From NCBI RefSeq assembly GCF_988243305.1, contig NZ_OZ547136.1: DNA of 64,000 nucleotides. The stretch is one strand, 5' to 3'. Position 1 is the first letter of the stretch. Each line of letters opens with the position of its first letter. Of this stretch, positions 39,001 through 42,000 are shown piece by piece. Made by a program: the position numbers.

Positions 39001-42000
39001 CCCTCGCCAGTTACTAATCCACCAGAATAATCTTCAGTGCAAACAGAGCTGCGACCACCACCACACACAGGTTCAGATCGCGCCAGCGCCCGGTGCATAC
39101 TTTCATGATGCAGTACGACATAAAGCCAAGTGCAATCCCTTCGGTGATCGAGAAAGTAAAGGGCATCATCACCGTGGTAACAAACGCAGGCACCGATTCG
39201 GTAAAATCATCCCAGTTAACGCGCGCCAGACTTGAGGTCATCAACACGCCAACAAAGATTAACGCTCCGGCGGTTGCGTAAGGAGGAACCATCGCCACCA
39301 GCGGTGAGAAGAACATAACTAACAGGAACATAACGCCGACCACGACAGCCGTCAGCCCCGTGCGACCACCGACCGCCACACCAGAAGTACTTTCAATATA
39401 GGCGGTAACAGACGAGGTGCCGATAAACGCACCCGCCACCGAACTGACGCTATCAACATACAGCGCCTTATTCATATTAGGGAATTTACCGTTACTATCT
39501 ATTAAGCCAGCTTTATCAGTTACACCAATTAATGTTCCTGATGAATCAAATAGGTTGATCAGCATAAAGGAGAAAATGATACCGGCGAGTTCAAGTGTTA
39601 ACGCGCCGCTCAAATCTACTTCACCAATGACGCCGCTAATATCAGGCGGAATGGAATAGACGCCGCTAAAATGAACATCACCGAAAAATAAGCCACAGCA
39701 AGACGTCACCACAATAGAAACCAACACCGCGGCATGAAAATGACGTGATGACAACACGGTTATAATAAAAAACCCTAAAATACCTAACAACACGCCGTGA
39801 GAACTTAAATCGCCAATCATCACCAGGGTGTCTTTATTGGCGACAATAACGCCAGTGTTTTTTAATCCCATTAAGGCAATAAATAATCCGATTCCGCTGG
39901 TGATACCAATACGTAAACTTAATGGAATGTTGGAGATCATCCAGTAACGGATACGAAACAGCGTGAGCAAAAATAGCCCAATTGCGCCCCAGAATATCGC
40001 ACCCATCCCGGTCTGCCAGGAGATACCCATCGCCCCCACGACCACGAACGCAAAGAAGGCGTTCAGCCCCATTGCCGGAGCCAGCGCCACGGGTAAGTTA
40101 GCAAATATCCCCATCGCAATACTGCCGATACCGGCAATCAAACAGGTGGTAACAAACACCACTTTCGGGTCCATTTGTGCCGCGCCGAGGATTTGCGGGT
40201 TCACAAAAACGATGTACACCATGGTTAAAAAAGTGGTCATCCCCGCAATCAATTCTGTGCGAACGGTGGTCCCATGCTGAGGTAGTTTAAATAATCGCGA
40301 AAGCGTCCCTGATTCATTACTCACGTAATCGGTATTGTCATTATTCATTTTTTTGTCCATTGGAGGAGATTTAATCCCTTGCTTTTGTAAAACAAATGAC
40401 AACAACGGTTCAGTGATAATTATCACATTTCAATTGCACATTAATGGATATTCTTTAATAATCTCGCGACGTTTCTTTATGATAAATAATAATCAAATTG
40501 ATAAAATCAAAATGAGAAAAATATGAATAATTCTATTAACCATAAATTTCATCACATTAGCCGGGCTGAATACCAGGAATTGTTAGCCGTTTCCCGTGGC
40601 GACGCTGTTGCCGATTATATTATTGATAATGTCTCTATTCTCGACCTGATCAATGGCGGAGAAATTTCCGGCCCAATTGTGATTAAAGGGCGTTACATTG
40701 CCGGTGTTGGCGCAGAATACACTGATACTCCGGCTTTACAGCGGATTGATGCCCACGGCGCAACGGCGGTGCCAGGGTTTATTGATGCTCACCTGCATAT
40801 TGAATCCAGCATGATGACGCCGGTCACCTTTGAAACCGCTACCCTGCCGCGTGGCCTGACGACCGTTATTTGCGACCCTCATGAAATCGTCAACGTGATG
40901 GGCGAAGCCGGATTCGCCTGGTTTGCCCGCTGTGCCGAACAGGCAAGACAAAACCAGTACTTACAGGTCAGCTCTTGCGTACCCGCCCTGGAAGGCTGCG
41001 ATGTTAACGGTGCCAGTTTTACCCTTGAACAGATGCTCGCCTGGCGGGACCATCCGCAGGTTACCGGCCTTGCAGAAATGATGGACTACCCTGGCGTAAT
41101 TAGCGGGCAGAATGCGCTGCTCGATAAACTGGATGCATTTCGCCACCTGACGCTGGACGGTCACTGCCCGGGTTTGGGTGGTAAAGAACTTAACGCCTAT
41201 ATTGCTGCGGGTATTGAAAACTGCCACGAAAGTTATCAGCTGGAAGAAGGACGCCGGAAATTACAACTCGGCATGTCGTTGATGATCCGCGAAGGGTCCG
41301 CTGCCCGCAATCTCAACGCACTGGCACCGTTGATCAACGAATTTAACAGCCCGCAATGCATGCTCTGTACTGATGACCGTAACCCGTGGGAGATCGCCCA
41401 TGAAGGACACATCGATGCCTTAATTCGCCGCCTGATCGAACAACACAATGTGCCGCTGCATGTGGCATATCGCGTCGCCAGCTGGTCGACGGCGCGCCAC
41501 TTTGGTCTGAATCACCTGGGCTTACTGGCACCCGGCAAGCAGGCCGATATCGTCCTGTTGAGCGATGCGCGTAAGGTCACGGTGCAGCAGGTACTGGTGA
41601 AAGGCGAACCGATTGATGCGCAAACCTTACAAGCGGAAGAGTCGGCGAGACTGGCACAATCTGCTCCTCCGTATGGCAATACCATTGCCCGCCAGCCAGT
41701 TTCCGCCAGCGACTTTGCCCTGCAATTCACACCCGGAAAACGCTATCGGGTAATTGACGTCATCCATAACGATTGATTACCCACTCCCGCTCCAGCGTCT
41801 ACAGCGAAAATGGTTTTGATCGCGATGATGTGTGCTTTATTGCCGTACTTGAGCGTTACGGGCAACGGCTGGCTCCGGCCTGTGGTTTGCTCGGCGGCTT
41901 TGGCCTGAATGAAGGTGCGCTGGCTGCGACGGTCAGCCATGACAGCCATAATATTGTGGTGATCGGTCGCAGTGCCGAAGAGATGGCGCTGGCGGTCAAT

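Follow-up and report, generated by a model that had tools for sequence, protein, structure and literature searches.

The closest described counterpart of the locus studied here is the adenine deaminase of Escherichia coli, Ade or AdeD (YicP, b3665; NF007457, TIGR01178), a member of the binuclear-metal amidohydrolase superfamily that converts adenine to hypoxanthine and NH3, with which it shares its position, synteny, and catalytic-site residues. In E. coli K-12, ade is cryptic; H-NS silences it, and insertion of an IS element can activate it (Petersen, Møller & Valentin-Hansen 2002, J Biol Chem 277:31373, as this work is summarized in PMC2753651 and PMC13274399). Two other deaminases likewise consist of an amidohydrolase barrel and a C-terminal β-sheet region, namely, Bacillus subtilis YerA, an N6-methyladenine/adenosine deaminase (PDB 9JQL), and the Agrobacterium tumefaciens ADE Atu4426 (PDB 3NQB). 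These are distant homologues (E-value of 1e-76 for 3NQB and of 5e-12 for YerA's C-terminal part), and they are used here only to gauge the weight of the C-terminal region. All YerA constructs that lack this region were insoluble, and it has been proposed to form a lid over the active site (PMC12133300).

We analyzed a stretch of 64,000 nucleotides from contig NZ_OZ547136.1 of RefSeq assembly GCF_988243305.1, which is referred to below as the window. The ade locus in the window has the synteny usual for E. coli, with the adenine permease gene adeQ divergent upstream and uhpT convergent downstream. Unlike the intact E. coli gene, however, its reading frame is interrupted at codon 417, which leaves the Adenine_deam_C domain unfused from the barrel. 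The features of the locus are as follows.

40349..40522, no strand: adeQ-ade intergenic region, divergent promoter/regulatory DNA, AT-rich (27% GC)
40523..41776, plus strand: ORF1, the N-terminal fragment of 417 aa (native residues 1 to 416 plus E417D, then the premature TGA)
41771..41773, plus strand: lesion site, a GAT codon that was formerly GAA (Glu417), with the A lost at 41771-41772
41773..42288, plus strand: ORF2, the C-terminal fragment of 171 aa (native residues 418 to 588), with a TTG start
41774..41776, plus strand: premature TGA stop resulting from the frameshift, overlapping the TTG at 41773..41775

E. coli adenine deaminase is divided between the two ORFs (417 + 171 = 588 aa). 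Against the 588 positions of the NCBIfam model NF007457, ORF1 corresponds to positions 1 to 417 and ORF2 to positions 418 to 588, and ORF1 alone scores 906 bits, above the whole-protein cutoff of 768 bits for curated membership. A preliminary description of this DNA had the first ORF ending at the TGA and the second running from 41773, with a joint length equal to that of the intact enzyme, and in all of these respects it was accurate. It also placed the second ORF in the +1 frame; relative to that of ORF1, the frame of ORF2 is actually -1 (codons begin at 41773 in ORF2 and at 41774 in ORF1), as expected after a 1-nt deletion. Pfam domains Amidohydro_1 and Adenine_deam_C (PF13382) lie at residues 82 to 362 and 434 to 579, respectively, with the amidohydrolase barrel in ORF1 and most of the Adenine_deam_C domain in ORF2. 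The fusion of the two in one chain of ~588 aa is thus lost, since the frame breaks at codon 417. Residues H90, H92, E185, H214, H235, E236, D284, and D285, which we take to be the metal ligands and catalytic residues of the barrel, are all present, all encoded by ORF1, and invariant in 28 orthologues. The roles of such residues in adenine deaminase were reportedly worked out by Kamat et al. in 2011.

Comparison with intact ade alleles confirmed the suggestion in the preliminary description that a single-base frameshift splits the gene. Intact alleles are 1,767 nt and the window copy is 1,766 nt, and global alignment with four intact alleles (L001, L002, L005, and L006) gives exactly one gap, of 1 nt, at nt 1250 within the gene. 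Codon 417 has lost one of its A's (GAA to GA), and AACGAATTG now reads AACGATTG, which changes Glu417 to Asp and brings the TGA into frame. The TTG "start" of ORF2 is the native Leu418 codon, and the two ORFs together encode every native residue except for E417D. One mark of a frameshift pseudogene is an indel, relative to intact orthologues, whose length is not divisible by 3, together with a premature stop, and in this case the stop comes immediately after the 1-nt deletion. The split is a deterministic feature of the sequence, to which a chance expectation does not apply.

We conclude that the split ade gene is very probably a real and very recent loss-of-function mutation that is confined to one clone. 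The deletion makes the short quasi-repeat GAATTGATT a perfect repeat, GATTGATT, and the A of codon 417 was probably lost through replication slippage at this site. Translation would then end at the TGA straight after residue 417 and yield a 417-aa fragment that keeps the metal-binding barrel and is missing residues 418 to 588, which make up most of the C-terminal domain, while the downstream 171-codon ORF, without a ribosome-binding site, would at best be weakly translated. Since ade is monocistronic, with adeQ divergent on one side and uhpT convergent on the other, we expect no polar effect, and no neighboring gene should be affected.

The mutation is both young and rare. It must be very young because, across 7,767 nt, the deleted base is all that separates the window from two strains with intact ade, L005 (GCA_044323295.1) and L006 (GCA_966556975.1); the adeQ-ade intergenic region has no mismatch to either of them. 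Against other E. coli alleles, the DNA identity of the window gene is 98.6 to 99.0%. When the A is restored, the resulting protein (P0001) is found exactly as "adenine deaminase [Escherichia coli]" on 103 contigs and in 186 index blocks. The deletion junction is present in 0 of the 5,426 RefSeq complete E. coli genomes, in a search for which the repaired 42-mer served as a positive control and matched 4,181 of the 5,426. A 32-mer of the junction that allowed one IUPAC position likewise had no match in 100,044 GTDB species representatives or in JGI metagenome contigs. The deletion is restricted to a small clone, and only a handful of samples carry it. Like enteroaggregative E. coli 042 and IAI39, this E. 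coli strain has an eip/eilA/air island, and the closest complete RefSeq genome to the window is that of SC418 (99.1 to 99.7% identity).

The preliminary description also raised the possibility that the mutation struck a gene that was already cryptic. As far as K-12 is concerned this stands, since PMC2753651 relates that ade is cryptic and silenced by H-NS there. The window gene is the same gene with the same AT-rich upstream region, and the 27% GC of that region fits silencing by H-NS as reported for K-12. The two differ in that K-12 ade is intact and transcriptionally silent, whereas in the window the coding sequence itself is broken. A cryptic gene is not the same as a decaying one, however. 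The dN/dS ratio between E. coli ade alleles is 0.02 to 0.045, which indicates strong purifying selection, and a full-length copy is kept in 5,407 of the 5,426 complete E. coli genomes. Selection of this strength means that ade must be expressed and useful somewhere in nature.

These values also bear on whether the loss of ade was selected in the clone, e.g., because it conserves adenine, rather than being a neutral accident. This is an unlikely explanation, and nothing in our analysis supports it. One observation in its favor is that ade lesions that arose separately are seen in other E. coli assemblies, at codons 360 to 413. Against it are the strong purifying selection and near-universal retention of the gene, the limitation of the deletion to a handful of samples, and the lack of any parallel recurrence of the exact lesion in RefSeq complete E. 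coli genomes, GTDB representatives, or JGI metagenomes. In addition, because ade is silent in K-12, its loss should be nearly neutral under many conditions.

The other lesions came to light through an exact look-up of the 171-aa ORF, whose matches at first seemed to be numerous further carriers of the same deletion. This was rejected, as all ten loci found (L007 to L016, from other E. coli assemblies and metagenome contigs) differ from the window in their lesion (codons 360 to 413). From codon 359 to codon 418 the native frame offers neither ATG nor GTG nor TTG in between, so that any break at codons 360 to 417 yields the 171-aa ORF, which is thus a generic product. Since the lesions were found through this ORF, they are a biased sample and do not show that loss of ade is unusually frequent. 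They include deletions of 19 bp (L009) and 17 bp (L016), a duplication of 14 bp (L013), the loss of an A (L014), the gain of an A (L015), and the gain of two C's (L007). Those in L009, L013, L014, L015, and L016 resemble the window's in that they shift the frame, at codons 360 to 413, and leave the same downstream 171-aa ORF, but both the mutations and the allele backgrounds (97 to 98% identity) are different. Some of the lesions in other assemblies are probably assembly errors: in L007 and L014, uhpT/uhpC is fragmented too, which makes these look like error-prone assemblies. An IS200-type Y1 transposase gene lies between ade and uhpT in L013, L014, and L016.

The position of the break argues that the truncation matters for the protein. 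Although the Pfam Adenine_deam_C domain starts near residues 412 to 434, we rejected the idea that the break falls at a clean domain boundary on the basis of three comparisons. First, the break lies inside a conserved (P)NE(L/I)IT motif, in which 27 of 28 sequences have E417 and all have T420 (orthologues with 54 to 86% identity). Second, an AF2 model (pLDDT 90.6, pTM 0.91) predicts that the break is in a loop, residues 413 to 420, between the β-strands formed by residues 407 to 412 and 421 to 428; the block from 411 to 420 has a lower pLDDT of 75. Third, the break maps ~34 residues inside the crystallized C-terminal unit of YerA (PDB 9JQL, Gly380-Arg580), which folds independently. Among the 120 best matches, all full-length orthologues (55 to 87% identity) are fused chains of ~588 aa, the shorter entries are fragments, and none is a naturally split orthologue.

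Translation of the second half is also expected to be poor. As a start codon, UUG is weak. The 20 nt upstream of ORF2 lack a Shine-Dalgarno sequence, and there the calculated anti-Shine-Dalgarno duplex is +0.3 kcal/mol; the corresponding value is -6 to -13 kcal/mol for six of the seven neighboring gene starts that were tested. With a weak start codon and no Shine-Dalgarno sequence, efficient translation of ORF2 is unlikely. Based on the conserved motif, the AF2 model, and the YerA truncations, the split enzyme is most likely inactive and the allele most likely null, because the cell would be left with a fragment that has no residues 418 to 588 and with an ORF2 that is at best weakly translated.

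One could instead suppose that the gene still works in two parts, with ribosomes reinitiating at the UUGA overlap and the 417-aa and 171-aa chains joining non-covalently into an active adenine deaminase. The arrangement has features that would suit such a split: the stop and start overlap by 2 nt, E417D is the only change to the residues, the break is predicted to fall in a surface-type loop of lower pLDDT between two β-strands, and the equivalent region of YerA folds alone. If it were true, this would be a natural functional protein that is split inside a β-hairpin, reassembled by β-strand complementation, and translationally coupled. We nevertheless consider it very unlikely. Reinitiation would have to rely on the weak UUG without a Shine-Dalgarno sequence, and by analogy with YerA the break would be well inside an independently folding region, with strand 407 to 412 parted from its sheet. 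The motif that is broken is a conserved one, and the 120 best matches offer no precedent for a split form. Furthermore, the allele is rare and so young that selection has had no time to test a split enzyme.

The reading of the gene as a recent loss-of-function mutation requires that the deletion be real, and the preliminary description had offered a homopolymer sequencing error as the alternative to a true pseudogene. An exact look-up of the 417-aa product found it on Logan contigs from ERR2932835, where the contig recurs in six samples, and from ERR15422816. These contigs are identical to the window, with the deletion included, over 7,254 nt (ERR2932835) and 4,791 nt (ERR15422816). The same deletion is thus present in contigs assembled separately from seven read sets, which belong to at least two projects, with an exact match of up to 7.25 kb, although reproducibility is judged here on assembled contigs and some of the seven Logan read sets may be one isolate that was sequenced again. 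We also searched the window by tblastn for 41 genes annotated in E. coli SC418. Of these, 40 run in one frame over their full length, adeD alone being split, which argues against assembly quality as the cause. No assembly error is more frequent than the single-base indel, and two assemblies with a broken ade, L007 (NCTC) and L014 (ECZU34), also have broken neighbor genes, as is typical of error-prone long-read assemblies. It is nonetheless highly improbable that this genome truly has GAA at codon 417 and an intact 588-aa gene. The affected run consists of two A's only, which is not the homopolymer that the suggested error would call for, the same base is missing in other assemblies, and the 40 other genes compared have no frameshift. 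Of the two alternatives offered at the outset, real pseudogenization is therefore the one that we favor.

Programmed recoding, in which a -1 ribosomal frameshift or transcriptional slippage restores the full-length protein, is virtually out of the question: if ribosomes shifted by -1 after GAU, they would continue at UUG and make the E417D protein at full length, but no slippery heptamer of the form X XXY YYZ is present in CAU AAC GAU UGA, there is no long A/T run or other long homopolymer for transcriptional slippage, and nothing about the site is conserved, with plain in-frame sequence in every relative. Recoding and reinitiation were both rejected for want of a supporting signal, be it a Shine-Dalgarno sequence, a slippery heptamer, or a long homopolymer.

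Several other features of the window were recorded. Between the convergent ade and uhpT genes is a GC-rich hairpin, GCCCGGC-GTCAT-GCCGGGC, at 42297..42315. It is preceded by seven A's on the plus strand, which form a T-run after the hairpin on the minus strand, and because the T-run follows on that strand, the hairpin looks like the intrinsic terminator of uhpT and not that of ade. Between ilvN and uhpA are two paralogous ORFs of 496 and 435 aa (~25% identity), at 47564..49054 and 49309..50616 on the minus strand, neither of which has a Pfam match; their SC418 counterparts are a 489-aa copy and a second one of only 160 aa. At 37727..38390 on the plus strand, nepI and yicN are separated by a RelE/ParE-family toxin gene and an HTH antitoxin gene (HigBA-like), and SC418 and strain C1 have the same arrangement.

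Further upstream, a seven-gene sugar utilization cluster at 1842..8785 on the minus strand lies between yicH and yicI, where E. coli SC418 has no such cluster. Its products are a D-lyxose isomerase (PF07385), a ROK kinase, two paralogous class-II aldolases, a PTS EIIC, an EIIA_2, and a PRD/Mga-type regulator. The tRNA-Sec gene selC is at 13083..13177 on the plus strand. This gene is a well-known integration hotspot, and SC418 has a P4-like integrase island there; in the window, setC directly adjoins selC (from 13813), so that there is no island at this site. The eip/eilA/air island, which is linked to ETT2, is at 17657..36112 and encodes a SycD-like chaperone, a YopB/SseC-like translocon protein, an IpaD/SipD-like tip protein, and EilA. 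Its alleles are mosaic and divergent: the YopB/SseC-like protein has 83% amino acid identity to that of SC418, and a 383-aa ORF has only 46% identity to its SC418 counterpart. The inverse autotransporter Air/EaeX/IatC, also encoded in the island, at 24692..36112 on the minus strand, has 3,806 aa and is 80 to 83% identical to the 4,000-aa IatC of SC418.

The split ade gene is an ordinary clone-specific frameshift pseudogene. The gene itself, lesions of this type, and its cryptic status were all known already, and the split has little importance beyond annotation. The locus should be annotated as one frameshifted adeD pseudogene and not as an "amidohydrolase" and a "hypothetical protein." The deletion provides a clean marker for the clone, being one base in an otherwise identical 7.7-kb region. 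As for the organism, the strain is predicted to lack direct deamination of adenine, even with ade released from silencing.
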